From positions 126,811 to 190,810 of the forward strand of contig CACMTZ010000002.1 of the NCBI GenBank assembly GCA_902616725.1: DNA of 64,000 nucleotides. The letters are read 5' to 3'. Within the stretch, counting starts at the first letter, position 1, and each line of letters starts with the position of its first letter. Shown piece by piece: positions 29,571 to 51,726 of this stretch. The notes beneath the pieces were generated by a model, which saw only the letters and a list, made by a program, of their open reading frames with translations, was not told the origin of the DNA and made no database searches. A program made the translations under genes and the position numbers. This DNA is from an uncultured Pelagibacteraceae bacterium (GTDB lineage: Bacteria > Pseudomonadota > Alphaproteobacteria > Pelagibacterales > Pelagibacteraceae).

Positions 29571-30866
29571 ATGATCACAAAAAAAGAGCAAATAATTGAA
29601 TATTTCAAGTCTGGTATTAAAAATAAGAAAGAATTTAAAATTGGTATCGAACATGAGAAATTTCTATTTGATAGTCAAAATAATAAAAGAATTGATTATC
29701 AAAAAATAAAGGAAATGTTCTCAGCTCTACTTGAGTTTGGATGGAATCCTGTATTAGAAAACGATAATATTATTGCTTTAAATAAGGGCGGTAAAAATAT
29801 TACTCTTGAGCCAGGTAATCAAATTGAATTATCTGGTGATAAACTTACTAATATTCATGAAGCATGTGCAGAGTCTTATGATTATTTATTTGAATTAAAA
29901 CAGGTCACAAAAAAACTTAATATTAAAATTGTAAGTGCAGGTTTCGATCCAATATCAAAATTAGATGAGATCCCCAATAACCCTAAAAAAAGATACAAGT
30001 TAATGACAAATGATATGCCTTTAGGGGGAGAATTAAGTCTTGATATGATGTATCGAACCTGTGGAACACAGTTAAACTTAGATTACTGTTCAGAAGAAGA
30101 TTTTAAAAAAAAATTTAAAATAGTTAATTCTCTGGTGCCTATTTCAATTGCTTTATTTGCTAATTCATCAATAGTTGAGAAGAAAAAAAGTAATTATTTA
30201 TCGTACCGATCGAAAGTATGGCAAAATACTTCTCGAGGTGGTTTGCCTAAATTGTTCCTAGAAAACTTTGATTTTGAAAAATATGCGGATTTTGTGATTA
30301 ATTTTCCAGTTCTGTTTATACAACAAAAAGAAAATTATTTTTCAGGTAAAGGATACAATTTTAGTGATTTTATGTCAGGAAATATTAAAGAAATAAATAA
30401 TCGTCTGCCTGATGAGAATGATTTATCAACTCATTTAAGTACAATTTTTACCGAGAATAGACTTAAAAAATATATTGAATTAAGATCGATGGATACTTGT
30501 GGTTGGGATTGTCTATGTGCGGGCCCAGCATTTAATGTTGGAATGTTATATGGAAATTTAGATGAAGTTTATGAATTAATTTCTAGTTGGGATAAAGATA
30601 AAATTATAAATGCATATTTAGAAGCGCCACAAAAAGGTTTTAATACCCAACTTATGGGTAAAGACCTACTATATTGGTCTTCAGTGTTATTAGATTTATC
30701 TAAAAAGGGATTAGAAAAGAGAGATATAGTCAATAAAAGTGGAAAAAATGAGACCCTATTTTTAAATCATCTACAAAAAGTGATTGATAATAAAACTACA
30801 AATGCACATCATATGATTATTAAATTTTCTAAAGATGAAGATTTAACTGAATTATATGACAAATAA
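29571..30866 (+). CDS. gshA: glutamate--cysteine ligase (plant/alphaproteobacterial GCS2 type)
   Basis: 431 aa with IGIEHEKF, LEPGNQIELSG and the IELRSMD pattern. It is followed by gshB with an 11-nt overlap. Confidence 0.85.
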   Translation: MITKKEQIIEYFKSGIKNKKEFKIGIEHEKFLFDSQNNKRIDYQKIKEMFSALLEFGWNPVLENDNIIALNKGGKNITLEPGNQIELSGDKLTNIHEACAESYDYLFELKQVTKKLNIKIVSAGFDPISKLDEIPNNPKKRYKLMTNDMPLGGELSLDMMYRTCGTQLNLDYCSEEDFKKKFKIVNSLVPISIALFANSSIVEKKKSNYLSYRSKVWQNTSRGGLPKLFLENFDFEKYADFVINFPVLFIQQKENYFSGKGYNFSDFMSGNIKEINNRLPDENDLSTHLSTIFTENRLKKYIELRSMDTCGWDCLCAGPAFNVGMLYGNLDEVYELISSWDKDKIINAYLEAPQKGFNTQLMGKDLLYWSSVLLDLSKKGLEKRDIVNKSGKNETLFLNHLQKVIDNKTTNAHHMIIKFSKDEDLTELYDK

Positions 30867-31782
30867 AATTATCGCTATCCAGGGAAATCATCCTTCTAAA
30901 CTTAACCCTTTAACCGATACAAGTATTTTTTTAGCTCATGAAATACAAAAGAAAAATTATAAAATTTTCTATTATGATCCAAAAGACTTATCTATCATCA
31001 ATTTTAAAATAATTGCTAAAGGATTTTTCATCAAATTTAATTATAGAAAAAAAAGATTTTTTCAAATCTTAAAAAAACAAAAACTAGAGCTAATTAAATG
31101 TAAATATTTACTTATTCGCCAAGATCCACCATTCAATTTAGAATATATTTGTTCAACTCTTATTTTAGATAAAATAAAAAAAAGGGTTAGAATTATTAAT
31201 GATCCAGCGGCAATAAGAAATGTATCTGAAAAACTTTTTTCCACAAAATATCAAAAATTTATGCCAGACACTATTTTTTCTCAAAATATTGATGAAATTA
31301 GAAAGTTTTTTAAAAAACACAAAAAAGTGATTGTTAAACCTATCAATAGCTATAGTGGAAATAACATATATTTATTAACTAAGTTTAATCCAAAATTTTT
31401 TCAAAAATTTATTAAAAAACACAATCATATTATGTGTCAAAAGTACTTACCTAAGATTAAACTGGGAGATAAAAGAGTTTTTTTAATAAATGGTAAAGTT
31501 TGTGGCGCAATATCAAGAATTCCAAAAAAAGGTTCATTTTTAAGCAATTTAAGCAAAGGTGCAAAACCAATAAATATAAAATTAACCAATAAAGAAATGA
31601 AAATATCAAAATTGATTAGTAAAGATTTAAAAAAAGATAAAATTTTCTTTGCTGGAATTGACTTCATAGATGAACAACTTAATGGTGACATAAATGTTAC
31701 ATCACCTACTGGATTAAAAACTTTATACGACCTCTCAAAAATAAATTTAGCCTCAACTTTCTGGAAAGAATTAAAAGCGTGA
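30856..31782 (+). CDS. gshB: glutathione synthetase
   Basis: 308-aa ATP-grasp protein with LIRQDPPF, GDKRVFLINGK and INVTSPTG motifs. Confidence 0.92.
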   Translation: MTNKIIAIQGNHPSKLNPLTDTSIFLAHEIQKKNYKIFYYDPKDLSIINFKIIAKGFFIKFNYRKKRFFQILKKQKLELIKCKYLLIRQDPPFNLEYICSTLILDKIKKRVRIINDPAAIRNVSEKLFSTKYQKFMPDTIFSQNIDEIRKFFKKHKKVIVKPINSYSGNNIYLLTKFNPKFFQKFIKKHNHIMCQKYLPKIKLGDKRVFLINGKVCGAISRIPKKGSFLSNLSKGAKPINIKLTNKEMKISKLISKDLKKDKIFFAGIDFIDEQLNGDINVTSPTGLKTLYDLSKINLASTFWKELKA

Positions 31783-32639
31783 AAAATCTTACAGACCAAC
31801 AAAAAGGATCATTATTGGCTTTTGTTGCTGTAATGTTTATTACACCAGACTCACTATTTATAAGGCTTTCAAATGTAGATACTTGGGGTTTAGTTTTTTA
31901 TAGGGGAATTATTCCTTTTCTGACAGTTTTGATAGGTATGTTAATTATTTATAAGTTAAATTTCTTCAAGATTCTTTTCACAAGTAGTTATCATGGAATA
32001 TTTTATGTAATTACATTTAGTGTAACCAATATAACTTTCGTTGTTTCTATTCAAAATACAAATGTTGCTAATACCTTAGTTATGATAGCGACTGCTCCAA
32101 TGCTATCAGCAATTCTTGGAGCTATATTTCTAAAAGAACCACCTGATAAAAAAACTTGGACCTCTATAATAATTACTTTTTTAGCAATAATATATATTTT
32201 CTACGACTCTTTGAAGTTAGGTAATTTTTATGGAGATATTTTAGGTTTTGTTACTGCAATTGGTCTAGCGGTTGGAGCAGTTATTATCAGATCTGCTAAA
32301 AATAAAAATTTAGTTCCTGCTGCTGTAGTTGGTAAATTATTTGTAGCAACTTTTGCATTACTTTTTATCGAAAGTTTTGCATTAGTTGGTAAAGATCTTT
32401 TGATTGTTCCATTGATGTGTATTTTATGTGTAGCGATACCTTTTGTTTTGGTTACCATTGCGCCAAGGTTTATACCTGCTGCAGAAGTTAATCTTTTTTT
32501 TCTACTAGAAACTATAATTGGTCCAATTTGGGTTTGGTTAATCATAAAAGAACAGCCTAGTTTAGAAACACTTCAGGGGGGTCTAGTTATAATAACCACC
32601 ATCGCAATTCACTCATACTTAAAACTTAAAAATTCTTAA
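31779..32639 (+). CDS. DMT-superfamily (EamA-like) transporter
   Basis: 286 aa with about 10 TM helices and two EamA-like halves. The GTG start overlaps the gshB TGA stop (GTGA). Confidence 0.8.
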   Translation: MKNLTDQQKGSLLAFVAVMFITPDSLFIRLSNVDTWGLVFYRGIIPFLTVLIGMLIIYKLNFFKILFTSSYHGIFYVITFSVTNITFVVSIQNTNVANTLVMIATAPMLSAILGAIFLKEPPDKKTWTSIIITFLAIIYIFYDSLKLGNFYGDILGFVTAIGLAVGAVIIRSAKNKNLVPAAVVGKLFVATFALLFIESFALVGKDLLIVPLMCILCVAIPFVLVTIAPRFIPAAEVNLFFLLETIIGPIWVWLIIKEQPSLETLQGGLVIITTIAIHSYLKLKNS

Positions 32640-32697
32640 GCTTGTCACAATTAAGACTTGATTTAATAATACATCGCGAATAATTACCTCAAATTTT

Positions 32698-34053
32698 ATG
32701 AATAAAGTTTTAAAAAACTCCTGGGCATTATTTTTGGGAATGGGCTTCATCATGATGGCTTATGGATTCCAAGGTTCTCTTCTTGGGGTAAGAGCGGTCC
32801 AAGAAGAATTTAGCCTTACCTCAACTGGATTTATGATGTCTGGTTATTTTGTAGGTTACTTTATTGGTGCTGCAACTATTCCAAATATAATTTCGAGAGT
32901 TGGTCACATAAGAGTTTTTGCAGCTTTTGCATCTTTAGCCTCATTAGTTGTTTTAGTTCACTCAGTAATAATTCATCCATTCATATGGTTTCTATTAAGA
33001 ATACTTACCGGGGTGAGTATGGTCTGCATTTATACAGTTGCAGAAAGTTGGTTAAATGACAGATCAAGTAATAAAAATCGAGGTAGCGTACTTTCTATTT
33101 ATATGGTCATACTTTATGGAACTATGGGAATCGGTATGTTTTTACTAAATTTTAGTAGTCCTAAAAACTTTCAACCCTTTATATTAGTTTCAGTAATTAC
33201 CTCTGCAGCTTTAATACCAATTTTACTTACTAAAAAGAAACCACCTAACTTTAAAAAAATACAAGCAATGAATATGAGAGAATTATATGACGCTTCACCT
33301 TTTGGTATGGTGAGCTCTCTTTTTTATGGAACAATACAATCGGCTTTATTCACATTGCTAGCAGTTTATGCTACCTCCATGAACTTCACCATTTTAGAAA
33401 TATCAATTGTAACTTTCTTGTTAGCAATTTCAGGTGCAGTAGCCCAATTTCCAGTTGGTAAAATTTCAGATATTTACGATAGAAGAAGAGTAATTGTGTT
33501 TTCAACATTCGGAGCGGCAATATTCGCAATAATTGCAATATTTGTTTCAAGGCAAATGTATTTACCAGGTGGTCTTGCAACTAGCAAAACATGGTTTTAT
33601 TTTTTCTTTATTCTTTTTTCATTTTGTAGTTTACCAATGTTTTCTTTAATCCTAGCACATACAAATGATTATATCTCAAAAGAAAAATTTGTTGCAGCTG
33701 GTGCGGGACTGCAATTTGCTTTTGGATTAGGAGCAATGAGTGGGCCATTTCTTTGTTCAATATTTATGGATTTGGTTGGACCAAATGGTTTCTTTGTCTT
33801 TTTATTCATTTTTCATTCTCTAATTGGATTTTTTGGAATATATAGAATGAAAGTAAGAAAAACTGTTGAAAATCCTGACTCTCAGTTCGTAGCTATGCCA
33901 CAGACCATTACACCAGCAGGTATTGAACTTAATCCTACTACTGAACACATAGAGGAACCATATTCAGAAAAAGTTAAAGAAATTTTAGAGAGAAAAGGTG
34001 TAAAATATAAAAAAGACGAGAACGAAGATAAAAAAGAAGAAGCGACATACTAA
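32698..34053 (+). CDS. MFS transporter
   Basis: 451 aa with about 12 TM helices, a D-R-x-x-R-R-like loop (DIYDRRRV) and a hydrophilic C-terminal tail. Confidence 0.8.
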   Translation: MNKVLKNSWALFLGMGFIMMAYGFQGSLLGVRAVQEEFSLTSTGFMMSGYFVGYFIGAATIPNIISRVGHIRVFAAFASLASLVVLVHSVIIHPFIWFLLRILTGVSMVCIYTVAESWLNDRSSNKNRGSVLSIYMVILYGTMGIGMFLLNFSSPKNFQPFILVSVITSAALIPILLTKKKPPNFKKIQAMNMRELYDASPFGMVSSLFYGTIQSALFTLLAVYATSMNFTILEISIVTFLLAISGAVAQFPVGKISDIYDRRRVIVFSTFGAAIFAIIAIFVSRQMYLPGGLATSKTWFYFFFILFSFCSLPMFSLILAHTNDYISKEKFVAAGAGLQFAFGLGAMSGPFLCSIFMDLVGPNGFFVFLFIFHSLIGFFGIYRMKVRKTVENPDSQFVAMPQTITPAGIELNPTTEHIEEPYSEKVKEILERKGVKYKKDENEDKKEEATY

Positions 34054-34162: not shown

Positions 34163-34894
34163 ATGCCATTAAAAAAAAAGAAAACAAAAATTAAAAAAAA
34201 AACTAACGGACTTGCTAAAATAGCATCGTTTACAACAAGTTCGCTAAGTAGTGCATTATCCAATTATAAGAAAAAAAAAGAACAAGAAAAAATCAAAGCT
34301 ATTAAATTACAAAAACTTGAGGAAAGAAATTCTTATCAAAAAGAAAAAAAAGAATTGAAACTTTGGGAGGACAGGCTCAATAAGGAGAGTAGTAAAATTC
34401 GCTCAAATGAAGAAGAGCTAAGGATAAGAGAAAAAGAAATTAGGTCTAAAGAAGATCAACAAAAAATTGAAAGTGAAAGACTAACGAAAAAAGATGAGGA
34501 GTTAGTACTTGTTGCAAAAGAATTAAGAGAAAAAGAAAAACAATTAAAAACTAGGGAAGAAGAGCAAAATAGAAAAGATATTGATTTAAAAGTAAGAGAA
34601 GATGAACAAAAAAATAAAGAATTAAAAGAGCAAAGACGTAAAAATAGAGAGTTAAAAATATTGAAAGAAGAGGAAGATAGACAAAAAGAAGCTGAGTTTA
34701 TCAAAATAAGAGAGTGGGAAGAAAAATTTGATAGAGATCAAAAGCAAAAAGAACAAGAAGAAATAAGACGTGAACAAAGACTTATTCAAAAAGAAATAGA
34801 AAAAAGAGCAAGATTTGATGAAATTGACAAAAATCTTAAAAGTTCATCAAGTGGATTAGAGAATTTTAATATAGATAAATCTAAAGAAAATTAA
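34163..34894 (+). CDS. Lys/Glu/Arg-rich predicted coiled-coil protein, function unknown
   Basis: 243 aa with a basic N-terminus (MPLKKKKTKIKKK), then about 170 aa of uninterrupted charged heptad-like sequence (…EELRIREKEIRSKEDQQKIESERL…). It has strong purine-rich coding-strand bias. No TM segment or signal peptide. Confidence 0.55.
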   Translation: MPLKKKKTKIKKKTNGLAKIASFTTSSLSSALSNYKKKKEQEKIKAIKLQKLEERNSYQKEKKELKLWEDRLNKESSKIRSNEEELRIREKEIRSKEDQQKIESERLTKKDEELVLVAKELREKEKQLKTREEEQNRKDIDLKVREDEQKNKELKEQRRKNRELKILKEEEDRQKEAEFIKIREWEEKFDRDQKQKEQEEIRREQRLIQKEIEKRARFDEIDKNLKSSSSGLENFNIDKSKEN

Positions 34895-34901
34895 TCTTTT
34901 T

Positions 34902-36017
34902 TTATTGTTTCGGAAAATAATCTTTGATTTCACCTTCTCTATAAACATCAGCAGTACAACAATGAAGTCCACCTCCAAAAGCATAAGCATCTCTTAAATC
35001 TACTGGGATTACCTCCATACCTAACTTGTCTAATTGTTCTGCCTGATATTTTTCACTTTTTTCAACACAAACTGTTTTAGGATCTAACACTAAAACATTC
35101 ATTGAAAGCCAAACAGATGAATAACAAAGTGGTGGTGGCTCATTATGAGCTGGTTGAGCGGCATCAATTATCTCCCATCCATTATTTTCGAATAATTTTC
35201 TTTGATCTTTAGGTAATTTTCTTTGAGGATTATTTATAATCAAACCTTCTTTTATAGGAGTAAAGGTTGCATCTATATGTATTGGATATGGGTCACCCGG
35301 AAAGTTTACTGCATGAATTCTATGATCTTTAAAATGTCTTTTTAACCAATCAATACCTTTTAAATTTGTGGTGAAACCGTGTTGTACAATTAAGTCTTTT
35401 CCAAATCGAAGTATGTCTGCTGCATCAAATAAAGGTTCTTCCTCAGTTGTTACAAAAAATTTATCTTCAGTCCACTTTAACCTTTTTTCAATTCCTATTT
35501 TATCAGACAAATAATCTTCCCTGTAATCTGCATCTGTTAATCTTGGTTTAGGAGCTGACTCATGTCTCATGTTCGGGTCTGAATTATAATATTCTTTTAA
35601 AAGAGGTCGGTAGCAAAGATATTCAAACCATCTGCATCTATAACTCATAGTAGCTTCTAAAATTTCATTGCCGACAGTCAATAAAACATCTCTTGGGGGC
35701 ATACAACCAAACATAGTTTCAACTTTCCAGTCAGGGGTTGAAATATTTTGATTAAAATCAATTGGTGTTGGTCTATCTACTTTAATACCACGCTTAGATA
35801 ACATTTCTGAAAAATCATTTAACAATTGATTAGCTTTATCTATTGTATCTTTTGTTCTTGGACCAAATTTACCTTTCATATCAGAGTCTTCAGGAACTTT
35901 AGCATCAAGCGCTGGTTCAGGGGCTGGAATACATACACCATCTGCCCTGCCAACAATTACATGTTTTAATGGATCCCACTCATTCCAACTATTTACAATG
36001 ATTTTATCTCTATCCAT
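34902..36017 (-). CDS. amidinotransferase, glycine amidinotransferase (AGAT/GATM)-like
   Basis: 371 aa that looks alignable end to end with my recollection of vertebrate AGAT / StrB1: VNSWNEWDPLKHVIVGRADG, LFDAADILRFGKDL (Asp), PYPIHIDATF (His) and FGGGLHCCTADV (nucleophilic Cys). Confidence 0.8.
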   Translation of the reverse strand: MDRDKIIVNSWNEWDPLKHVIVGRADGVCIPAPEPALDAKVPEDSDMKGKFGPRTKDTIDKANQLLNDFSEMLSKRGIKVDRPTPIDFNQNISTPDWKVETMFGCMPPRDVLLTVGNEILEATMSYRCRWFEYLCYRPLLKEYYNSDPNMRHESAPKPRLTDADYREDYLSDKIGIEKRLKWTEDKFFVTTEEEPLFDAADILRFGKDLIVQHGFTTNLKGIDWLKRHFKDHRIHAVNFPGDPYPIHIDATFTPIKEGLIINNPQRKLPKDQRKLFENNGWEIIDAAQPAHNEPPPLCYSSVWLSMNVLVLDPKTVCVEKSEKYQAEQLDKLGMEVIPVDLRDAYAFGGGLHCCTADVYREGEIKDYFPKQ

Positions 36018-36022
36018 TAAAT

Positions 36023-36928
36023 TTAATTTAGTGCGATGTATCTCTTATTCCACCTCATGATAAGACTATAATAAATAAGTGAAACAAACAGAAAGAAACC
36101 ACCTACTATTGTGTTAGTAGATGGAATTTCATTAATCCCAAACAATGGTAACCATACCCAAAAAATTCCTCCAATAACCTCTGTCAGAGACAATAATGTT
36201 AACTCTGCAGCTTGGATTGCTTTAGATCCTATAGAATATAAAATAAGACCTAAACACACTAATACCCCATGTAAAGAAAACATTGCACTATTATAACTTG
36301 TAGCAAAAAAAGTTTGTTTATTAACCAAAATCATAATCGTAGCAGTTATAAAACAAAATAAACCGGCTACAGCGACTGTTGTAAATTTTGGAGTTTCTTT
36401 CCTCCATCTTAAAGTGACTGAAAAAATTGAAAATCCGATTGATGATGTAAGTCCAAAAACAAAACCTATTAAAGAATTTTTTTCAGTATTACCAACAGCC
36501 ATGATTATAATACCCACAGTTGCAATAAGCATTGATATCCAAACATTAAGAGAAATTTTTTCTTTTAAAAATAAAAAAGCTAATAATGCAGTAAAAAAAG
36601 GCATTGCAGCTAAACATAATAAAGTAATTGCTGCAGTAGTGTTTGTAATTGAATAAATAAATGAAATCATTGCAATACCAAGACCAATTCCACCAACGAG
36701 TCCTGATTTACCTACTTTTTTGTAATTTTTATAAAAATTTATTCCTTCTTCAAAATATAAATATAAATTTAAAATAATAAAAATAGTTAAACCTCTACCA
36801 AAAATATATTGCCAAGGGACCATATGAGGATCATTCATATATCTCACTACCAAGGGACCAAACGACCAAAGTATCCCTGCAAATAAAACGACCGGTACAG
36901 CTATTTTTTCATTTCTTAGTTCAACCAT
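36023..36928 (-). CDS. DMT-superfamily (EamA-like) transporter
   Basis: 301 aa with about 10 TM helices. It lies 5 bp upstream of the amidinotransferase on the same strand. Confidence 0.8.
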   Translation of the reverse strand: MVELRNEKIAVPVVLFAGILWSFGPLVVRYMNDPHMVPWQYIFGRGLTIFIILNLYLYFEEGINFYKNYKKVGKSGLVGGIGLGIAMISFIYSITNTTAAITLLCLAAMPFFTALLAFLFLKEKISLNVWISMLIATVGIIIMAVGNTEKNSLIGFVFGLTSSIGFSIFSVTLRWRKETPKFTTVAVAGLFCFITATIMILVNKQTFFATSYNSAMFSLHGVLVCLGLILYSIGSKAIQAAELTLLSLTEVIGGIFWVWLPLFGINEIPSTNTIVGGFFLFVSLIYYSLIMRWNKRYIALN

Positions 36929-37014
36929 AATCGACTATTTAGATCTAATTGATTAGTACTACAACATAAATTAAATTGTTATACAAAGTATTAGCACTAA
37001 TATAATAAATTAAT

Positions 37015-37958: not shown

Positions 37959-39158
37959 ATGAAAATATTATGTGTATTATATGATGATCCAAAAGGAGGA
38001 ATGCCTAAATCATACCCACTTAAAGATCTTCCTAAGCTAGAAAAATATCCAGATGGGATGACCTTACCTTCACCAAAAGGAAGAGATTTTAATCCTGGAG
38101 AATTGTTAGGATGTGTTTCAGGAGAATTGGGATTAAGAAAATTTTTAGAAAGTAATGGACATGAGTTAGTAGTTACTAATAGTAAAGACGGAGATGGATG
38201 TGAGGCTGATAAACATATCGTTGACGCTGATATAGTTATTTCTCAACCTTTTTTTCCATACTACTTAACTAAAGAAAGAATTGCTAAAGCAAAAAACTTA
38301 AAAATGGCTATTACAGCTGGAATTGGCTCTGATCACGTAGATTTACAAGCAGCTATGGATAACAAAATTGATGTAGTTGAAGTAACTTTTTGTAATTCAA
38401 GATCTGTTGCTGAACACATTGTAATGATGATTGTATCAATGGTGAGAGACTATCACAATCAACATAGAATTGTTAATGAAGGTGGATGGAACATAGCAGA
38501 TGCTGTGCAAAGATCTTATGATGTTGAAGGTATGCACATCGGAACTGTTGCTGCTGGCCGTATCGGTTTAGATGCATTAAGAAAAATGAAACCATTTGAT
38601 GTACACTTGCATTATTTTGATAGACATAAATTACCAGATAGTGTTGAAAAAGAATTAAACCTAACATTTCATGAGTCAGTAGAGTCTATGGTTAAAGTTT
38701 GTGATGTCGTGACAATAAATTGTCCCCTCCATCCTGAGACTGAGAACTTATTTGACGATGCAATGATAAGCAAAATGAAAAAAGGTGCTTATATCGTAAA
38801 CACTGCAAGAGGTAAAATTTGTAATCGTGATGCAATCGCAAAAGCATTGAAGAGTGGTCAACTAAGTGGTTACGCTGGAGACGTTTGGTTTCCACAGCCA
38901 GCTCCAAATGATCATGTATGGAGAACAATGCCTAACCATGGAATGACACCTCATACTTCTGGAACATCTTTGTCAGCTCAAACAAGATATGCTGATGGTG
39001 TAAGAGAAATCTTAGAATGTTTCTTTGAAGGAAAAGAAATTAGAGATCAATATCTTATCGTCAAAGATGGACAATTAGCTGGAATGGGTGCTCACTCATA
39101 CAGTAAAGGATCTGCCACAGGTGGTTCTGAAGAAGCAGCTAAATATAAGAAAAAATAA
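37959..39158 (+). CDS. fdh: NAD-dependent formate dehydrogenase
   Basis: 399 aa, near-collinear with my recollection of Pseudomonas sp. 101 FDH: MKILCVLYDDP, GSDHVDL, TVAAGRIGL, PLHPETE, GDVWFPQPAP and the C-terminal GGSEEAAKYKKK. A strong SD (AGGAG) lies 6 nt upstream. Confidence 0.95.
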   Translation: MKILCVLYDDPKGGMPKSYPLKDLPKLEKYPDGMTLPSPKGRDFNPGELLGCVSGELGLRKFLESNGHELVVTNSKDGDGCEADKHIVDADIVISQPFFPYYLTKERIAKAKNLKMAITAGIGSDHVDLQAAMDNKIDVVEVTFCNSRSVAEHIVMMIVSMVRDYHNQHRIVNEGGWNIADAVQRSYDVEGMHIGTVAAGRIGLDALRKMKPFDVHLHYFDRHKLPDSVEKELNLTFHESVESMVKVCDVVTINCPLHPETENLFDDAMISKMKKGAYIVNTARGKICNRDAIAKALKSGQLSGYAGDVWFPQPAPNDHVWRTMPNHGMTPHTSGTSLSAQTRYADGVREILECFFEGKEIRDQYLIVKDGQLAGMGAHSYSKGSATGGSEEAAKYKKK

Positions 39159-41283: not shown

Positions 41284-42387
41284 TTAAAGAACATATGGCT
41301 CATGTCTCGCCTGTTTACCTAAAACTCTCTCTACAGCCATATTTGAAATATCAATTGATTGATAAGCACCCGTCGTAATCAATTCTGTTAATGCTCTACC
41401 AATTCCCGGGGCTTGCATTAATCCTCTTCCTGTGAAACCTGTTGCTAAGTAAACATTTTCAAATTTTGGATGTTTTCCAACAACTGCATTGTTATCAAGT
41501 CGATTGCAATCATAATATCCAGCCCATCCACCAGTTAATTTTAATTCTTCCATAGCCGGTATTCTATGAGCTAATGCTGGCCAAACCAATTCTTCAAAAT
41601 CATCCCATGCAGGTTCAAGATCTTTGGCATCAAAGACTGATTTTGGTGAACCAGCTAAGTATTCTTTACCTTCAGGTCTCCAATAAACTCCTGTTGTTAG
41701 ATCTCCCGTTAATGGCATTTCAGGAATATGTTTTGGGCACTTTACTCTGAAAACTGTATGTTTTTGAGGTTCAACAGGGATATCTTCTAAAAGCTCTTTA
41801 GTCCAACATCCAGCTGCTGAAATAATTGTCTTAGCATTAATTTCTGAAAGAGATTTAACTTCACCCTTAACAAATTCTGCGCCAAGATCAATTGCTTTAC
41901 TTTTTAGAGCACTATGAAACATGAAGGGGTCAATCCATCCTTCACTTTGATTGTCAGTAAAAGTCGCTGTTTCAATTCCCTCACTATTGATATATGGAAA
42001 AAAATTATTCAACTCAGAGCCTTTGATATTTTTTGTTCCCGCATCACAAGCTTTATGATTTTCGAGCGCTTTATATTGTTCATCTGCATGCTCAGGTCCA
42101 AACATTAATAAATAACCATTAGTCACCATACTGGCAGTGGGTTTTGGATTTTTTTCAGTTTTTAATAAATCTGGAATTTGAAAAATAAATTCTCTGGCAA
42201 ATTTTCCTAATAAAATATTTTCTTTTTGGAAAAATTGTCTTCTAAAGCCACCTAATGACAAAGGGAAAGAAGCAGTTTTATAAGTTGGATCTTTTTCTAT
42301 AACTTTAACTTTTCTGCCCTCTTTTGATAAAAAGTAAGCAGTCGCGGCTCCAATTATTCCACCACCAACTATTACAACATCATCCAT
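41284..42387 (-). CDS. FAD-dependent oxidoreductase (DAO family)
   Basis: 367 aa with the N-terminal dinucleotide fold VVIVGGGIIGAATAYFLSKEG and the C-terminal ATGFTGRGLMQAPGIG. It has a 1-nt overlap with the tspO stop. Confidence 0.8.
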   Translation of the reverse strand: MDDVVIVGGGIIGAATAYFLSKEGRKVKVIEKDPTYKTASFPLSLGGFRRQFFQKENILLGKFAREFIFQIPDLLKTEKNPKPTASMVTNGYLLMFGPEHADEQYKALENHKACDAGTKNIKGSELNNFFPYINSEGIETATFTDNQSEGWIDPFMFHSALKSKAIDLGAEFVKGEVKSLSEINAKTIISAAGCWTKELLEDIPVEPQKHTVFRVKCPKHIPEMPLTGDLTTGVYWRPEGKEYLAGSPKSVFDAKDLEPAWDDFEELVWPALAHRIPAMEELKLTGGWAGYYDCNRLDNNAVVGKHPKFENVYLATGFTGRGLMQAPGIGRALTELITTGAYQSIDISNMAVERVLGKQARHEPYVL

Positions 42388-42878: not shown

Positions 42879-43640
42879 ATGAATAAAAAAACAATTTGGA
42901 TAACAGGTGGGAGTACTGGAATCGGCAAAGCTCTTGCAATAAAATTTGCTAATGAAGGGTGGAATGTTGCTATTTCAGCTAGACGTGAGAATCTTCTCAA
43001 TGAGATTGCTGACAATCATGAAAATATAAGTCCATTTCCATTAGATGTGACTGATAAATCAAAATGTAAAGAGGTTTTTGAAAAAATTAAGAATAAATTT
43101 GAAAATATAGATATTTGTTTTTTTTCCACTGGTACATGGAATCCAAAAAAAGAAAGAGATATTGATATTGAGCAAATTGAGGAAGTCTTTAAAATTAATT
43201 TTTTTGGGACATTGAATGCTATCAAAGCAGTTGAAGAATATTTTAAAAAAAAGAAAAGTGGAACAATTACTATCGTTTCCTCAATTGCCGGTTATAGAGG
43301 TTTACCAAATTCAACTGGATATGGACCTTCAAAATCTGCTCTAAATAATTTAGCAGAAAGTCTATATTTTGACTTTAGTCGATCAAATGTCAGAGTATGC
43401 TTGGTATCTCCAGGTTTTATCAAAACTCCAATGACTGATAAAAATGATTTTAAAATGCCCTTTTTAAAAACTACTGAGTATGCGGCTGAAAAAATATATG
43501 ATGGCTTGGTTAATAAAAAAACTTTTGAAATTCATTTTCCAAAATCATTAACTATTGTACTGAAGATCTTAAGTTTTCTTCCGAGTAAGATTTATTTTGG
43601 TTTAGTTGGAAAATTAACAAAATATCAAAAGAAAGATTAA
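42879..43640 (+). CDS. short-chain dehydrogenase/reductase
   Basis: 253 aa with TGGSTGIGKA, YGPSKSA and a hydrophobic C-terminal tail. Its start codon is 9 bp from the divergent tspO start. Confidence 0.88.
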   Translation: MNKKTIWITGGSTGIGKALAIKFANEGWNVAISARRENLLNEIADNHENISPFPLDVTDKSKCKEVFEKIKNKFENIDICFFSTGTWNPKKERDIDIEQIEEVFKINFFGTLNAIKAVEEYFKKKKSGTITIVSSIAGYRGLPNSTGYGPSKSALNNLAESLYFDFSRSNVRVCLVSPGFIKTPMTDKNDFKMPFLKTTEYAAEKIYDGLVNKKTFEIHFPKSLTIVLKILSFLPSKIYFGLVGKLTKYQKKD

Positions 43641-44185
43641 TCTTTTACAAATACTACAGTCAATTCAGCGACTTTAATTCCAAATTTAGTCATTGTAGCT
43701 CTATTAATTGCTACTCGATCATCCTGTTTAAAAATCCAATCATCGAAAGTAATCTTAATTTCTTTACCTTTTACTGGAACTAATAAAACATACTCAAATT
43801 TAAATGCGGGACCATATGAATATCCCTTGGCTTTACCAACTACGTCTCCAGCAGTTCCCTCATAATTGTTGTCATCTATTTTAGTAATTTGCCATTGTCT
43901 AGTTTGTACTTCACCGTCATCCCAATTAAATTTTTCATCAAGAATTAACTGCTTACCATCCCACTTACCATCTAAATCTGCTGAAAATTGTCTAGTAACT
44001 TTTCCAGATCTATTCTGAAGAACTCCCCAAGCTTTAACATTGCCCGACAAGTAATTTTCTATGATTAATCTCGGTTCTTTACCTTTAAAATCTTCTGGTT
44101 TCATATCGCTATTATTTGAGCAGTTTGTAATTAAGAATAAAGAGATTATCAATAAAATTGATCTTAAGTTTATTATTTTGCTCAC
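43637..44185 (-). CDS. DUF3833-family lipoprotein
   Basis: 182 aa with the lipobox LITNC and YEGTAGDVVGKAKG…FDDWIFKQDD…N, as I recall for DUF3833. It is the last gene of the lipid-modification cluster. Confidence 0.65.
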   Translation of the reverse strand: MSKIINLRSILLIISLFLITNCSNNSDMKPEDFKGKEPRLIIENYLSGNVKAWGVLQNRSGKVTRQFSADLDGKWDGKQLILDEKFNWDDGEVQTRQWQITKIDDNNYEGTAGDVVGKAKGYSYGPAFKFEYVLLVPVKGKEIKITFDDWIFKQDDRVAINRATMTKFGIKVAELTVVFVKD

Positions 44186-44198
44186 AAGCCCCCGTTAT

Positions 44199-45377
44199 TT
44201 ATTTATTTTGAATTGAAAATTGTATCAGATCAATATTTTTCGATTTAAATCCAGCCTCACAATAAGATAGGTAAAACTCCCACATTCTTTTAAAAGTTAA
44301 ATCAAAACCTTGTTTTTTAATGAGATCCCATTTTCTATTAAATTCATTTTTCCAAATAGCTAATGTATTTGCATAATGATCAGCATATGAGTCGTAAGAC
44401 TTTATTGTTAAACCATTGTCTGAAACATATTTGTTTAAGCTATTTTTACTTGGCAAAAATCCTCCTGGAAAAATATATTTTTGAATAAAATCTTGTTTCG
44501 TTTTATATCTATCAAATAAACTATCATCTATTGTAATTGCTTGAATGGCAGCCCTACCATCTGTAGAAAGGTTTTTCTTAATAGTTTTAAAATAACTTTC
44601 CAAATAATTTTGCCCTACTGCCTCAATCATTTCTATCGACGCTATTGAATTATATTTATTCTTTAAATCTCTATAGTCTTTTATTTCAATATTTACTTTT
44701 TCATTTAAACCACAATTATGAATTCTTTTTTTTGCGTATTCGAATTGTTTTTTTGAAATAGTAATACAATCTAATTTTACATCATATTTTTTTCCTAAAT
44801 ATTCTGCAAAACCACCCCAGCCACATCCGATTTCTAAAACCCTATCACCATTATTAGGTTTTATTAAATCTATCATTTTTTGATATTTGTTATTTTGTGC
44901 ATCTGAGAGATCTTTAGTGGTCTCACTAAAAATTCCACTTGAGTAAGTTAAGGTTTCATCAAGCCATAAAGAAAAAAAATCATTTCCTAAGTCATAATGT
45001 TTTGCAATATTTTTCTTACTTCTATTTTTTGTATTTTTTATAAAGATCCCTTTTAAAAAATTTATAATTGGAAAATCGAGTAAACCTGAAAACTTGTATA
45101 TGATTTTGATGTTTCGAGCTGTTATTTCAATGAGATTGGATAAATTATCAGTTTCAAATTCTCCTCTCATGTAAGACTCAGCAAAACCAATGCTGCCACC
45201 CTTTATAAGATTAAAAGAAAAATTTTGTTTTTTAATTTTCAATTTAGCTTTTAAATTATCCTGAGGATTTCCAAATTTAAAAACTTCTCCTTGATAATTT
45301 GTAATTTCTAGATATCCAACATTTATTCCGGCTAATATGTTAAAAACCAGTTTGTCTGAAAGTCTATTTAAGGACAT
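44199..45377 (-). CDS. cyclopropane-fatty-acyl-phospholipid synthase-family SAM-dependent methyltransferase
   Basis: 392 aa with HYDLGNDFF, the SAM motif VLEIGCGWGGFAEY, FPGGFLPS and YLSYCEAGF. Confidence 0.88.
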   Translation of the reverse strand: MSLNRLSDKLVFNILAGINVGYLEITNYQGEVFKFGNPQDNLKAKLKIKKQNFSFNLIKGGSIGFAESYMRGEFETDNLSNLIEITARNIKIIYKFSGLLDFPIINFLKGIFIKNTKNRSKKNIAKHYDLGNDFFSLWLDETLTYSSGIFSETTKDLSDAQNNKYQKMIDLIKPNNGDRVLEIGCGWGGFAEYLGKKYDVKLDCITISKKQFEYAKKRIHNCGLNEKVNIEIKDYRDLKNKYNSIASIEMIEAVGQNYLESYFKTIKKNLSTDGRAAIQAITIDDSLFDRYKTKQDFIQKYIFPGGFLPSKNSLNKYVSDNGLTIKSYDSYADHYANTLAIWKNEFNRKWDLIKKQGFDLTFKRMWEFYLSYCEAGFKSKNIDLIQFSIQNK

Positions 45378-46135
45378 TAATTTTCAAAAGATATGTTGTT
45401 TCTTATTTTCAATTTTTTTTGGATAAACTTTATTCCTTTGGTCCATAATTTAAACGCTTCAAAATGTATCGCTGCAATAATTTTAAACGTCATTAGGGGA
45501 TGTTTTAAATAAGATTTAATTAACTCTGAAGTTGTAAAATCTTTTCTTTTCCCATCTTGAGAGGCATATAATATTTTTTCGTTTAATTGATATTGATCTA
45601 TGATTACTGAGATCTTATCTGCAGGTTTTAAAATTCTAAAAAAATAACTACAATTCATTTCAATGAATGGTGAAACATGAAATTTTTTCTCGCAATTGTG
45701 TTGCAATAAATTGTCATTTTTTACTTTAAAAACATAGGTGTGTTGCTCACCAAAAGTATTTTTGACTTCATATAATATGGATATCAAATCATTATTATTA
45801 TTGTACACATAAAAAACACTTAATGGATTAAAAACATATCCAAAGATTCTTGGGTAACATAAAAGTTTAATTTTAATATTTTCACTACTAATATTATTTT
45901 GATTAAGATTTTTTTTAACCCAATCGATTAATAGTGATCCATCTCTTTCTCCATGGTCTTTATCAAAAAAACTTACTAAATTAAATTTATTGTATGAAAA
46001 AAAACTAATTGTTTTATCTAATTTTTCTAATTCAGAAAGATCAATTAAAAGTGAAAATACCCTGTATTTAAAAAAATGTATCTTTGGTTTAAATCTTTTG
46101 TGAATTACAGTGCCATTATATATACAACTAGTCAT
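45377..46135 (-). CDS. DUF1365-family protein
   Basis: IYNGTVIHKRFKPKIHFFKYRVFSLLIDLSEL N-terminus, typical of DUF1365. It has a 1-nt overlap with the methyltransferase start. I prefer the start at 46135; 46156 is the alternative. Confidence 0.75.
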   Translation of the reverse strand: MTSCIYNGTVIHKRFKPKIHFFKYRVFSLLIDLSELEKLDKTISFFSYNKFNLVSFFDKDHGERDGSLLIDWVKKNLNQNNISSENIKIKLLCYPRIFGYVFNPLSVFYVYNNNNDLISILYEVKNTFGEQHTYVFKVKNDNLLQHNCEKKFHVSPFIEMNCSYFFRILKPADKISVIIDQYQLNEKILYASQDGKRKDFTTSELIKSYLKHPLMTFKIIAAIHFEAFKLWTKGIKFIQKKLKIRNNISFEN

Positions 46136-47372: not shown

Positions 47373-50243
47373 TTAAGCTGCATCTTCTTTAAATTCATCT
47401 ATGCTTGGACAAGTACAGAATATATTCTTGTCACCATAAACATTATCAACTCTTGCAACTGGAGGCCAAAATTTATTAGCTCTTAAGAATTTTGCTGGAT
47501 AAGCAGCTTCTGCTCTTGAGTATTTATGTGTCCAATCATCAGAAGCTAGTTCGCTGTCTGTGTGAGGAGCATTTTTTATTGGATTATCTATTTTATCAAA
47601 TTCACCTGATTTAATTTTTTCAATTTCTTCTTTAATCTTAATTAAAGTATCACAAAATCTATCGAGTTCTGACAAGCCCTCACTTTCAGTTGGCTCTATC
47701 ATCATTGTACCAGCTACTGGCCATGACATAGTTGGTGCATGAAACCCATAATCTATTAATCTTTTTGCAATATCTTCTTCGGTTACTCCTGTCTCTGATT
47801 TAATATTTCTAATATCAATAATACATTCGTGAGCAACATTTCCATTTGATCCTTTATACAAAATTGGAAAGTGATCTTTTAGTCTATGAGCAATATAATT
47901 TGCATTTAATATTGCTACTTCAGTAGCAAGCTTTAACCCTGCTGATCCCATCATTTTAATGTACATCCAAGAGATTGATAGAATACTTGAACTACCCCAA
48001 GGAGCTGCCGAGACTGCTCCAATGCCAGATGTTGGTCCACAATCTTTAATCACTGGATGATTAGGTAGATAAACTTGTAAATGTCTTTTACAAGCAATTG
48101 GTCCCATACCTGGTCCTCCCCCACCATGTGGAATACAAAATGTTTTATGTAAATTAATATGACAGACGTCTGGACCAAAATTTCCAGGCTTTGCAACTCC
48201 AACTAAGGCGTTTAAATTTGCTCCATCCATGTAAACCTGCCCACCATGTTTGTGAACTAACTCACAGATATCAGTTATTTTTTCTTCAAACACTCCATGG
48301 GTAGATGGATAAGTTACCATTAGTGCCCCAAGATTTTCTGAATGTTGTTCAGCTTTTTTCTTTAAATCATCAAAATCAACATTTCCCTCTTTATCACAAT
48401 TAACAACAACCACCTTCATTCCAACCATTTGTGCACTTGCTGGGTTAGTACCATGTGCTGAACTTGGAATTAAACATATATTACGATTAGCCTCACCCCT
48501 ATCTAAATGATACTTTCTGATAACCATTAAACCCGCATACTCACCTTGAGCACCTGCATTAGGTTGCAAAGAAACACCTGAAAAACCAGTTATAGAACGC
48601 AACCAATTTTTTAGATCAGTAAATAAATCTCTAAAACCCTCCATTTGTTCAATAGGAACAAACGGATGAGGTTCTGCAAATTCTTTCCATGATATTGGTA
48701 TCATTTCGGCAGCAGCATTTAATTTCATTGTACAAGAACCAAGTGCAATCATAGTTCTATTCAATGCTATATCTTTATCTTCTAATCTTTTTAAATATCT
48801 AAGCATTTCAGTTTCTGAATGAAATGAGTTGAAAACTGGATGTTCTAAATATTTTGAAGTTCTTAATAAATTTTTTGGAAGATTAGGTAAACTTACCGAT
48901 GGATCTTCTTTTTTGATTGATTCTGCTGCATTAAAAATTTTTAATAGTTGATTTACTCTATATACATTTTTTCTCTCATCAAATGAAACAGCAAGCATTT
49001 CAGAATTTACTTTTCGAATATTAACTCTCTGATTCAGAGCATTCTTATAAATTTGATCAGTCTTTTCTTTGGTAATAATCGTTACAGTGTCAAAAAAATT
49101 ATTCGAATAAAGCTCGTATCCAGATTGTTTTATTTTATCAGCAAAACTTTTTGCTAATTGAGACACTCTTTCCGAAATATTTTTAATTCCATCCGGGCCA
49201 TGATAAATAGCATACGCTGCTGACACAATTGCTAATAAAGCTTGGGCAGTACAAATATTACTCGTCGCCTTATCTCTTCTAATATGTTGCTCTCTAGTTT
49301 GTAATGATAATCTATATGCTTTGTTACCATGTCTATCAACTGATACCCCGACAATCCTTCCAGGCATTGATCTTTTAAACTCATCTTTCGTAGCAAAAAA
49401 AGCTGCATGTGGACCTCCATATCCCATTGGGATACCAAATCTTTGAGAGCTTCCAACTGCAATGTCGGCACCAAGTTCTCTCGGCGTTTTTAATTTTGCT
49501 AGGGCTAACAGATCACAAGCTAATACCGCCTTCCCATTTTTTTTGTGAATTTTGCTAATTGCTTCACTTGGGTCTTTTATATCTCCTAAAGTTCCTGGGT
49601 ATTGTAAAATTCCACAAACTAAATCCTCTTTTAGTTGATCTAAAACTTCATCTTCTTTACCGACTAAAACCTTTAAACCCATAGGTTCGGCTCTTGTTTG
49701 AATTACATCTATTGTTTGAGGGTGACAATCTTCAGAAACAAAAACTAAATTACTATCTTTTTTATTTAATCTGTGACTTAGACCCATGGCCTCTGCTGCT
49801 GCTGTGCCTTCATCTAATAAAGATGCATTGGCAATATCCATCCCTGTAAAGTCAACAATCATTTGTTGAAAGTTCAATAACATCTCAAGTCTTCCTTGGG
49901 CAACTTCAGGCTGATAAGGTGTATATGAAGTGTACCAACCTGGATTTTCTAGAATATTTCTCAAAATTACGTAAGGTGTATAAGTTCCATAATAACCCAT
50001 ACCAATAAAATTCGAGTAAACTTGATTTTTTTTCGAAATTGCTCTTAACTTTCTTAACGCTTCGTACTCTGAATTTGAATCACCAATATTTAGTTCACCT
50101 TTAAACTTTATCTTTTCTGGAACAGTATTGTCAATTAAATCATCTAGTGACTTATAGTTTAATTCTTTTAACATTTTTGATTGGTCTTCTTTAGAAGGAC
50201 CAATATGTCTTTTTAAAAAATCTTTTTCTGAATTAGGTAACAT
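47373..50243 (-). CDS. gcvP: glycine dehydrogenase (decarboxylating), single-chain P protein
   Basis: 956 aa with the PLP-lysine context NLHKTFCIPHGGGGPG. Confidence 0.97.
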   Translation of the reverse strand: MLPNSEKDFLKRHIGPSKEDQSKMLKELNYKSLDDLIDNTVPEKIKFKGELNIGDSNSEYEALRKLRAISKKNQVYSNFIGMGYYGTYTPYVILRNILENPGWYTSYTPYQPEVAQGRLEMLLNFQQMIVDFTGMDIANASLLDEGTAAAEAMGLSHRLNKKDSNLVFVSEDCHPQTIDVIQTRAEPMGLKVLVGKEDEVLDQLKEDLVCGILQYPGTLGDIKDPSEAISKIHKKNGKAVLACDLLALAKLKTPRELGADIAVGSSQRFGIPMGYGGPHAAFFATKDEFKRSMPGRIVGVSVDRHGNKAYRLSLQTREQHIRRDKATSNICTAQALLAIVSAAYAIYHGPDGIKNISERVSQLAKSFADKIKQSGYELYSNNFFDTVTIITKEKTDQIYKNALNQRVNIRKVNSEMLAVSFDERKNVYRVNQLLKIFNAAESIKKEDPSVSLPNLPKNLLRTSKYLEHPVFNSFHSETEMLRYLKRLEDKDIALNRTMIALGSCTMKLNAAAEMIPISWKEFAEPHPFVPIEQMEGFRDLFTDLKNWLRSITGFSGVSLQPNAGAQGEYAGLMVIRKYHLDRGEANRNICLIPSSAHGTNPASAQMVGMKVVVVNCDKEGNVDFDDLKKKAEQHSENLGALMVTYPSTHGVFEEKITDICELVHKHGGQVYMDGANLNALVGVAKPGNFGPDVCHINLHKTFCIPHGGGGPGMGPIACKRHLQVYLPNHPVIKDCGPTSGIGAVSAAPWGSSSILSISWMYIKMMGSAGLKLATEVAILNANYIAHRLKDHFPILYKGSNGNVAHECIIDIRNIKSETGVTEEDIAKRLIDYGFHAPTMSWPVAGTMMIEPTESEGLSELDRFCDTLIKIKEEIEKIKSGEFDKIDNPIKNAPHTDSELASDDWTHKYSRAEAAYPAKFLRANKFWPPVARVDNVYGDKNIFCTCPSIDEFKEDAA

Positions 50244-50623
50244 TATGCTGAAGTCTCCTTTGCAAATTTATCGTAATCGTCTTTATTCATCAAAGTATCC
50301 ATTTCCGATGGATCTTTTATTTTCAGTTTAAAAAACCACGCTGAATCCTCTGGGTCTTGATTAATCTTTGATGGATCATCTACTATAGCTTGATTTGTAT
50401 CAACTACTTCACCACTCACAGGGGTATATACATCACTAGCAGCTTTGGTCGACTCCACAACACCAGCAGTACCATCTTTCTCTACGCTGGATCCTTTTTC
50501 TGGGAGTTCTGCAAAAACTATATCACCTAACATCTCCGTAGCATGTTTTGTAATACCAATTGTTGCAACATCTCCATCTAATTTAATCCACTCGTGCTCT
50601 TTTGAATATTTTACTTGACTCAT
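50243..50623 (-). CDS. gcvH: glycine cleavage system H protein
   Basis: 126 aa with the lipoyl-lysine motif [13 protein letters not shown]. Confidence 0.96.
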
Positions 50624-51726
50624 TAGTTTACCCCTTTGACATAACTTTTTTTATAAAATGGTAAGCTGCAAATACTTGCAGGATGTTTTTTACCTCTGAC
50701 TTCTAAAAATACTTTAGTATTTTTTTTTGAAAATTCATTTTCCACATAACCCATTGCAACAGGTCCATTAACACTTGGTCCAAATGTACCACTTGTGATT
50801 TCTCCAATATGAACATCTGATTGATTAAATATTTTTGTTTTTTCCCTAGCAATAATTCTGCCTTCAGGTTTAATTCCAACTCTTATTTTGCTGACACCAT
50901 CATTTAATTGTTTAATAATTATGTCAGAGCCAATAAAATCTCCTTTAGAGATTCTTTCTTTTGAAATAGCCCACTTTAAATTTGCTTCCACTGGAGTTTT
51001 GTCTTTATCAAGATCATGACCATAAAGACATAAACCAGCCTCCAATCTAAGTGTATCTCTTGCTCCAAGGCCTATCAATTTAGATCCTTTGTTGATTAAT
51101 TCTCTAGTTAATTGGTCTACAAAATCATTTACAATTGATATCTCAAAACCGTCTTCACCAGTGTAACCAGATCGCGTAATATAAACTTTCTGATTTTCAA
51201 ATGTAAACCAGTTTCCAGACATAAAATTTAGATCTTTCACACCATCAATAACATCATTAAGAATTTCTGATGATTTAGGACCCTGAATGGCAATTAGAGA
51301 TCTATTTTCATCCAGAACCATTTTGTACTTATCCTCAAGAAATTCTTTTAAAATTTTAAAGTCATTATCTTTACATGCTGCATTGAGGATTATCAAAAAG
51401 CCTTCTTTTGTTTTTGTGATAATTAAATCATCATGTATCCCAGCATCTTTGTCCATTAAGAAGCTGTATTTTGAATGATTTAATTTCAAATTTTTAAGAT
51501 CTAAAGGAAAAATTTTTTCTAAATCTTTACTTAAGTCTTCACCACCATAAATAAATAGCTGACCCATATGAGAAACATCAAAGATACCTGAGTGATTTCT
51601 TGTGAATTTGTGTTCTTCTACAATACCTTCCGAATATTGTATTGGCATTTGATAGCCTGCAAATTCAACAAATTTTGCATTACAATCTTGATGTAATTGG
51701 TACAGCGATGTTTTTTTTGTTTCCAT
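50623..51726 (-). CDS. gcvT: glycine cleavage system aminomethyltransferase T
   Basis: 367 aa with [19 protein letters not shown] and [12 protein letters not shown]. Confidence 0.96.

Follow-up and report, generated by a model that had tools for sequence, protein, structure and literature searches.

An AGAT-family amidinotransferase encoded with an EamA permease, and in most SAR11 loci with a creatinase: a possible route for guanidino-compound salvage

Among the characterised amidinotransferases, human AGAT (GATM; EC 2.1.4.1; PDB 1jdw) serves creatine synthesis together with GAMT, CyrA/AoaA is a bacterial AGAT-family enzyme of the toxin gene cluster for cylindrospermopsin synthesis, and AmtA (arginine:lysine, phaseolotoxin), SxtG, HsvA and StrB1, which have a common fold and catalytic triad, belong to secondary-metabolite or virulence pathways. 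Here, an uncharacterised member of the AGAT family is described from an uncultured bacterium of the Pelagibacteraceae (SAR11), in which its gene follows that of a permease of the EamA/DMT (drug/metabolite transporter) family. Both genes lie on the minus strand of a window of 64,000 nt, the whole stretch of DNA that was analysed (GenBank assembly GCA_902616725.1, contig CACMTZ010000002.1, positions 126,811 to 190,810; window G+C content 28.5%), and coordinates below refer to this window unless another locus is named. The enzyme is best filed as a very conserved bacterial AGAT-family protein whose flap variant and genomic setting, the latter probably catabolic, are both new, and this context is of more interest than the identity of the enzyme itself.

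One determinant of substrate range in the family is the 300-flap, which reads D298-P-N300-P-M302 in human AGAT, D-I-F245-P-S247 in CyrA and D-M-H-P-M in AmtA (PMC4887976, PMC3684758). The aromatic flap position of CyrA has been tied to strict arginine/glycine specificity, and replacement of F245 and S247 led to a wider specificity (PMC4887976, PMC3684758). AmtA rejects glycine and guanidinoacetate. Both human AGAT and CyrA naturally accept guanidinoacetate as an amidine donor when ornithine is the acceptor, so that the reaction of these two enzymes is reversible (PMC4887976). With respect to the breakdown of creatine, creatinase is a core gene of SAR11 subgroup Ia (PMC3686209). No study of the amidinotransferase described here in SAR11 or roseobacters, of its permease or of its linkage to creatinase was found in the searchable full-text literature. 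A 'creatine to glycine' route in SAR11 has reportedly been described by Sun et al. in 2011 and Thompson et al. in 2013.

The amidinotransferase gene (36017..34902, minus strand) encodes a protein of 371 aa, which in a phmmer search of PDB sequences matched human AGAT over residues 8-368 (E=1.9e-84) and is 41.7% identical to it by blastp; further matches were SxtG (6u1r, 4.7e-68), HsvA (5wpi, 1.2e-59) and StrB1 (1bwd, 3.1e-52). The SAR11 enzyme is homologous to human AGAT over its full length, which settles its fold, and differs from it in having no mitochondrial presequence. A first-pass annotation of this DNA had proposed an AGAT-family amidinotransferase with the full catalytic signature and had quoted four motifs, NEWDPLKHVIVGRA at the N-terminus, LFDAADILRFG, PIHIDATF and GGGLHCCTADV, each of which is present in the open reading frame. 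The proposal is confirmed by the conservation of seven catalytic and binding residues, for which human numbering was rebuilt from the alignment and then verified. The triad Cys353 (codon at 34959..34961), His247 (35277..35279) and Asp198 (35424..35426), all on the minus strand, aligns with human Cys407, which carries the amidino group, His303 and Asp254, and does not vary within the SAR11/alphaproteobacterial clade. The guanidino-binding residues Asp170 and Asp305 of the human enzyme are kept as Asp110 and Asp249, and the clamp that binds the substrate alpha-carboxylate, human Arg322 together with Ser355, is kept as Arg266 (35220..35222, minus strand) and Ser301 (35115-35117, minus strand). 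Judged by these residues, the protein is a catalytically intact AGAT-family amidinotransferase, and it is predicted to work via a Cys-amidino intermediate.

Matches of the protein to Pfam and NCBIfam profiles were marginal or sub-threshold and limited to the shared C-terminal catalytic motif: the Pfam ADI match (24.1 bits) covers residues 305-360 only, and the NCBIfam scores were 23 bits for DDAH against a cut-off of 300 and 16 for ADI against 414. No ADI or DDAH structure was found at E<=1e-3 in the phmmer search of all PDB sequences. Placement with the ADI/DDAH clades, which the first-pass annotation had named as a result that would speak against its proposal, was therefore rejected, the profile matches being weak and C-terminal only and the full-length similarity being to transferases only.

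The lid above the substrate pocket, the 300-flap, is formed by residues 242-246 (35280..35294, minus strand). An invariant NFPGDPYPIHIDA characterises the SAR11/alphaproteobacterial clade, in which the flap reads D-P-Y-P-I and is preceded by one extra residue, in place of D-P-N-P-M without the insertion in human AGAT. When compared via published flap sequences, the enzyme combines an aromatic position 300, as in CyrA (CyrA Phe245, SAR11 Tyr244), with the prolines of human AGAT, and it is equal to neither. CyrA differs from it at position 302, where Ser stands in place of Ile, and in belonging to a toxin gene cluster, whereas the SAR11 gene is conserved and belongs to primary metabolism. AmtA, SxtG, HsvA and StrB1 are more distant from it than AGAT is, and StrB1 presumably has no 300-flap. 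The residue at position 322 differs between members of the wider family (R/K/F/Y/W/V and others), and the Arg found there in the window's enzyme points to substrates whose carboxylate is free, for example arginine or ornithine and glycine or guanidinoacetate.

Conservation of the enzyme is high. A species-level scan (one genome per species) revealed at least 586 loci that encode a relative, and the best 80 of these, which were used for analysis of neighbouring genes, are all from Pelagibacteraceae, with amidinotransferases that are 89-98% identical. Across 81 SAR11 sequences, 237 of the 371 alignment columns are invariant, and neighbouring genes in the same loci drop to 46-84% identity, the amidinotransferase being unusually constrained. 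Identity to it remains at 76-80% in proteins of Rhodobacterales and Rhizobiales, and outside this tight clade the next full-length relatives are at 62% (a single one, with a divergent C-terminus) and then at 48% or less. A clustered protein database holds 2,594 homologues and has the window's exact protein on record, the 90%-identity cluster comprising 7,560 member sequences, and a search of 1.84 billion cluster representatives yielded 260 clusters that match at E<=1e-30. The 90%-identity cluster also lists a 405-aa member labelled 'creatinase', which is probably a clustering or labelling artefact from an adjacent gene. The gene is named "glycine amidinotransferase" (K00613) in IMG/KEGG, and the family is named "serine/threonine protein kinase" by NCBI in SAR11, Aliiroseovarius, Rhodobacter and Rhizobiales. 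Since no kinase domain was detected in the protein by Pfam or NCBIfam, and the JGI label is glycine amidinotransferase, the NCBI label looks like a propagated misannotation.

The first gene of the operon (36928..36023, minus strand) was recognised as an EamA/DMT-family permease of 301 aa by its open reading frame, Pfam EamA match and hydropathy. Both open reading frames sit exactly where the first-pass annotation had placed them on the minus strand, as does the gap of 5 bp between them, which consists of the spacer ATTTA (36018..36022, minus strand) between the permease TAA and the amidinotransferase ATG. The permease scores 62.6 bits against PF00892 (EamA; cut-off 28.2), Pfam seeing the N-terminal repeat only; the alignment to TIGR00950 spans residues 61-284, and the NCBIfam matches are all well under their cut-offs (56 vs 230). 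The earlier description as a 10-transmembrane EamA-type transporter holds for the family and for a count of about 10 helices, of which the hydropathy scan gave nine as distinct peaks and the tenth was placed by eye at about residues 41-59, below the threshold.

The only PDB relative of the permease is LicB (7b0k, E=1.5e-6, residues 8-259), a proton-coupled importer of choline with the ten-helix DMT fold, whose substrate is a small cationic nitrogen compound. LicB is, however, very distant from the SAR11 permease, for which a substrate can be named as a candidate only. The operon encodes no other transporter. Because a binder of creatine or guanidino compounds is nowhere named in the main text of a published survey of SAR11 binding proteins (PMC11485210), the permease is the obvious candidate carrier for guanidinoacetate or creatine. 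Three EamA/DMT paralogues lie within a 21-kb part of the window, at 31779-32639 (plus strand), 36023-36928 (minus strand, the permease of the operon) and 51917-52795 (minus strand); the first follows gshA-gshB, and the third shares its strand with a glycine riboswitch and gcvTHP and lies immediately 5' of them.

Mapping of neighbouring genes on the 80 SAR11 loci plus the window (81 in all, with counts based on loci that extend far enough) revealed a modular locus. The permease gene lies directly upstream in all 77 SAR11 loci with enough sequence. At the position of the window's 5-nt spacer, 49 of 79 related loci carry a gene of about 1.2 kb between permease and amidinotransferase, with intervening spacers of 4-14 nt and 1-5 nt. 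Its 405-aa product matches the creatine amidinohydrolase of Pseudomonas putida (1chm) at E=5e-159 and contains Creatinase_N and Peptidase_M24 domains, and by this similarity the inserted gene is a genuine creatinase. Most SAR11 therefore have in this operon a creatinase matching that of Pseudomonas putida creatine use, in contrast to the window strain, which has none. Downstream of the amidinotransferase, at a distance of 1-5 nt, a pyridoxal-phosphate enzyme gene of the threonine-aldolase family, a family that releases glycine, is found in 31 of 81 loci. The architectures comprise permease-creatinase-AGAT (30 loci), permease-creatinase-AGAT-aldolase (17), permease-AGAT, which is the window's type (17), and permease-AGAT-aldolase (13), with four more interrupted by a contig end. 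The permease and amidinotransferase form the constant core, creatinase and aldolase are optional modules, and the window's lineage is a creatinase-less variant of the SAR11 locus.

In a neighbour-joining tree of the amidinotransferase, creatinase-less forms are scattered over five or more separate positions, and the tree shows no fewer than five gains or losses of creatinase. Among the close relatives of the window strain, with permeases 99-100% identical, one locus (L008) has creatinase and another (L001, HIMB1838, with a record labelled as a metagenome-assembled genome) does not. The cultured isolates represented among the loci, HTCC8051, HIMB4, HIMB123 and HIMB1483, all have creatinase. No amidinotransferase residue was found to co-vary with the presence of creatinase at the 80% level among the 81 SAR11 sequences, which together with the repeated gains or losses speaks for a self-sufficient permease-amidinotransferase pair. 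In a reciprocal test, which used 80 metagenome loci anchored on the SAR11 creatinase, of which 76 had room downstream, the amidinotransferase was directly adjacent in 73 and present with a broken alignment in two more (75/76). The single exception (L152, 2992-6944) has permease and creatinase followed by glycerol-3-phosphate-dehydrogenase-like and glutamine-amidotransferase-like genes.

The similarity of the start of the window's amidinotransferase (M-D-R-D) to that of creatinase (M-E-R-P) was considered as a possible deletion scar. This idea was not supported, because the first six residues of the amidinotransferase vary freely and the enzyme of a creatinase-bearing locus (L061) starts with MMDRK. 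The aldolase, found at 7118-8170 of locus L066 and in 30 other SAR11 loci, belongs to the Beta_elim_lyase family. Its substrate might not be threonine, as its best NCBIfam match is to the GntG family (70 bits vs a cut-off of 230) and it scores only 40 bits against LtaE. GntG takes part in guanitoxin synthesis, where its substrate for cleavage is a beta-hydroxy guanidino amino acid.

Seawater metatranscriptomes contain 18-37% of the 31-mers of the locus, and assembled contigs cover both genes, including two that span the junction of permease and amidinotransferase (35970-36173 and 36003-36143). In L008, a contig at 4675-4985 of that locus spans the permease/creatinase junction and one of 957 nt (5439-6395) spans the creatinase/amidinotransferase junction, and loose contig ends at these junctions match the creatinase-less junction of the window type exactly, which implies expression of the two forms side by side in the same water. 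The contigs come from RNA libraries in which carry-over of DNA is possible, and contig depth is no measure of expression. That permease and amidinotransferase form an operon, as proposed in the first-pass annotation, is borne out by their linkage in 77/77 SAR11 loci and by the transcript contigs across the junction, and co-transcription of the two genes is a firm conclusion. Based on conservation, cluster size and metatranscriptome coverage, both genes are real and not chance open reading frames.

The function tentatively favoured for this module, given its gene content, is uptake and salvage, in which a guanidino compound would be imported and guanidinoacetate and L-ornithine would then be converted to glycine and L-arginine. 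The permease would import guanidinoacetate-type compounds, as well as creatine where creatinase is present, and the amidinotransferase would run in the direction of arginine formation, so that imported N-amidino-glycine compounds would end as glycine or sarcosine. The cell would gain glycine, for which SAR11 has a conditional requirement, and would gain arginine without using carbamoyl phosphate, aspartate or ATP. The amidino nitrogen would be retained, whereas creatinase would lose the same nitrogen as urea. According to the binding-protein survey, SAR11 scavenges arginine at picomolar affinity (PMC11485210).

The salvage direction is favoured because a catabolic creatinase stands between the two genes in most SAR11 loci and an aldolase is often found downstream. 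It also agrees with the reversible reaction of human AGAT and CyrA, with the release of glycine by the aldolase family, with the glycine requirement and arginine scavenging of SAR11, and with import as the function of LicB. Of the two options put forward in the first-pass annotation, these neighbours in relatives favour import with the reverse reaction, while synthesis and export of guanidinoacetate is a poor fit with an operon partner that destroys creatine. Human AGAT serves creatine synthesis, and the SAR11 gene shares its operon with a permease gene and, in most loci, a creatinase gene; its product probably runs in the reverse physiological direction relative to the human enzyme. It is a firm prediction from gene content that the locus in most SAR11 genomes also degrades creatine. 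In the window strain, which has no creatinase, the permease-amidinotransferase pair would have to work alone, and the persistence of the creatinase-less pair in unchanged form in many lineages suggests that the permease also carries guanidinoacetate or that the amidinotransferase accepts creatine.

Several observations weigh against salvage. We infer the direction from gene neighbours alone, and this argument from context is borrowed from relatives, since neither creatinase nor aldolase was found in the 64 kb of the window (by tblastn in the case of creatinase). Many EamA/DMT proteins are exporters. Sustained catabolism would need regeneration of ornithine, and no measurement of guanidinoacetate in seawater was found in the searchable literature. 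The flap D-P-Y-P-I with its insertion is identical to that of no characterised enzyme compared, so that a different acceptor or donor may be involved; the remark in the first-pass annotation that acceptor and transported substrate cannot be deduced from sequence is well taken for the same reason.

The distribution of the gene beyond SAR11 is a further point on this side. In seven non-SAR11 contexts, namely Aliiroseovarius crassostreae, metagenome-assembled genomes of Rhizobiales and Rhodobacter, and four contigs from metagenomes or metagenome-assembled genomes, the gene (76-80% identical) stands alone, with no transporter, creatinase or shared neighbours. Thus, the enzyme may ancestrally have served a purpose other than the salvage of imported compounds, and the link to transporter and creatinase is a SAR11 arrangement; the basic role of the enzyme in Alphaproteobacteria is independent of that link.

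Of the other explanations, the one that survives best, though it is unlikely, is a biosynthetic AGAT coupled to export, in which arginine and glycine would yield ornithine and guanidinoacetate and the EamA protein would export the product as an osmolyte, signal or public good, or in which the enzyme would serve to supply ornithine. This is the canonical direction of the closest characterised relatives, human AGAT and CyrA, and it agrees with the export function of many DMT/EamA proteins. The solitary gene of non-SAR11 relatives would suit the use of internal arginine and glycine, and the downstream threonine-aldolase-family gene could provide the glycine acceptor. However, SAR11, being conditionally short of glycine and scavenging arginine, would be unlikely to spend both on a nitrogen-rich export product, and the usual operon partner, creatinase, hydrolyses the methylated form of that product. 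Furthermore, no guanidinoacetate methyltransferase was found in the locus among the neighbouring genes of the SAR11 loci inspected.

Less probable again is a creatine-specific amidinotransferase, which would interconvert creatine and ornithine with sarcosine and arginine, as an amidino-conserving alternative to creatinase or, in reverse, as a means of making creatine from sarcosine. Together with creatinase, such an enzyme would constitute an arginase-like cycle, in which arginine and water give ornithine and urea and sarcosine is catalytic. Tight linkage to creatinase speaks for it, as does the persistence of the creatinase-less pair without change in the amidinotransferase, which would be explained most simply if one imported substrate served both the enzyme and creatinase. 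The flap, too, is unlike those of all glycine-using enzymes. Isotope tracing in North Pacific communities showed that creatine is derived from sarcosine and not from glycine, for which the authors invoked 'an unidentified enzyme', although the labelling can be explained in other ways, including the reversible creatinase that they also suggested (PMC9321204). Of the characterised amidinotransferases covered by the two papers on the flap (PMC4887976, PMC3684758), none is described with a secondary-amine acceptor of the sarcosine type or with creatine as donor, and the pocket residues of the SAR11 enzyme are otherwise those of an arginine/glycine enzyme. More generally, amidinotransferases are not known to use a secondary-amine acceptor or a creatine donor.

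Doubtful to a similar degree is the use of a different partner, such as taurine (giving taurocyamine), lysine (giving homoarginine), gamma-aminobutyric acid, beta-alanine or a polyamine, with the permease carrying that compound. HsvA (5wpi), a PDB relative at E=1e-59, points in this direction, being a polyamine amidinotransferase. The family is flexible in its acceptor range, which depends for the most part on the flap (PMC4887976), and the flap is unique here, and KEGG-based work has assigned K00613 in marine bacteria to the making of taurocyamine from taurine (bioRxiv 2024.12.10.627767). On the other hand, the Arg266/Ser301 clamp is retained while the wider family varies at position 322, the creatinase neighbour points to N-amidino-glycine compounds, and no taurine or polyamine gene was found in the operon. 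Finally, it is highly improbable that the enzyme, in the manner of ADI or DDAH, is mainly an amidinohydrolase or deiminase with guanidinoacetate or arginine as its substrate, as the shared superfamily and Cys-His-Asp chemistry and the weak Pfam ADI and DDAH matches are outweighed by the restriction of those matches to the C-terminal motif, by scores far under the NCBIfam cut-offs (23 vs 300) and by full-length similarity to transferases only.

The presumed promoter region of the operon is the divergent intergenic region of 86 bp 5' of the permease gene (36929..37014). An Rfam scan of the whole window gave a glycine aptamer as the only element, and the 86-bp region was without a match at the gathering threshold. 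No sigma-70 consensus was found in this region, promoter-like sites were fewer than in shuffled sequences, and the sole terminator-like hairpin in a terminator scan lies within the permease gene, such consensus scans being uninformative in this AT-rich genome. The gene upstream of the permease is not conserved among SAR11; in L066 it is a MoeA-like gene on the same strand. The glycine aptamer (RF00504, 64 bits) is at 51804-51894 on the minus strand and directly precedes gcvT-gcvH-gcvP (51726..47373), with gcvT (51726..50623, minus strand) as the first gene 3' of it. The first-pass annotation was accurate in placing a glycine riboswitch some 15 kb from the operon (14.9 kb) and not in linking the two. 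Control of the operon by the riboswitch was rejected, because the sole aptamer adjoins gcvTHP and none is found 5' of 36928; the riboswitch regulates glycine cleavage and not the permease-amidinotransferase operon. A thematic link between them through the glycine economy of the cell is nevertheless reasonable.

Other genes in the vicinity were also noted. A Lys/Glu-rich open reading frame of 243 aa (34163-34894, plus strand) converges on the amidinotransferase gene, with 7 nt between the stop codons; it has no Pfam match, recurs in many SAR11 loci (50-99% identity) and is covered by metatranscriptome contigs. Further along, the interval 29571-34053 (plus strand) contains a GCS2-type glutamate-cysteine ligase, a 308-aa open reading frame that looks by eye like a glutathione synthetase, an EamA permease and a major facilitator superfamily transporter, with overlapping or tight junctions, and may be a unit for glutathione synthesis and transport. 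Within 5 kb of the operon are an NAD-dependent formate dehydrogenase (37959-39158, plus strand; 665 bits, equivalog) and a DAO-family flavoprotein with weak ThiO/sarcosine-oxidase-like matches (41284-42387, minus strand). These two genes are separate transcription units and fit the theme of methyl and one-carbon oxidation in SAR11, which published work ties to the use of creatine and glycine betaine. Beside gcvP, the interval 42879-47366 encodes a short-chain dehydrogenase/reductase, a DUF3833 protein, a methyltransferase resembling cyclopropane-fatty-acid synthase, a DUF1365 protein and an amine-oxidase-like flavoprotein.

The kinase mislabel in NCBI hides this amidinotransferase family from metabolic reconstructions of many Alphaproteobacteria. 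SAR11 dominates the bacterioplankton of the surface ocean, and scarce nitrogen and an unusual need for glycine shape its growth. Plankton and animals produce creatine and related guanidino compounds, which are rich in nitrogen. Were the enzyme a creatine:ornithine (arginine:sarcosine) transferase, it would fill the role of the 'unidentified enzyme' in sarcosine-derived creatine (PMC9321204) and would represent a previously unrecognised, urea-free recycling of creatine nitrogen in the most abundant marine heterotroph. If guanidinoacetate or creatine is converted to glycine and arginine by this widely carried and expressed operon, as tentatively favoured here, a new class of substrate would be added to the SAR11 diet, which would provide arginine cheaply and keep the amidino nitrogen within the cell.

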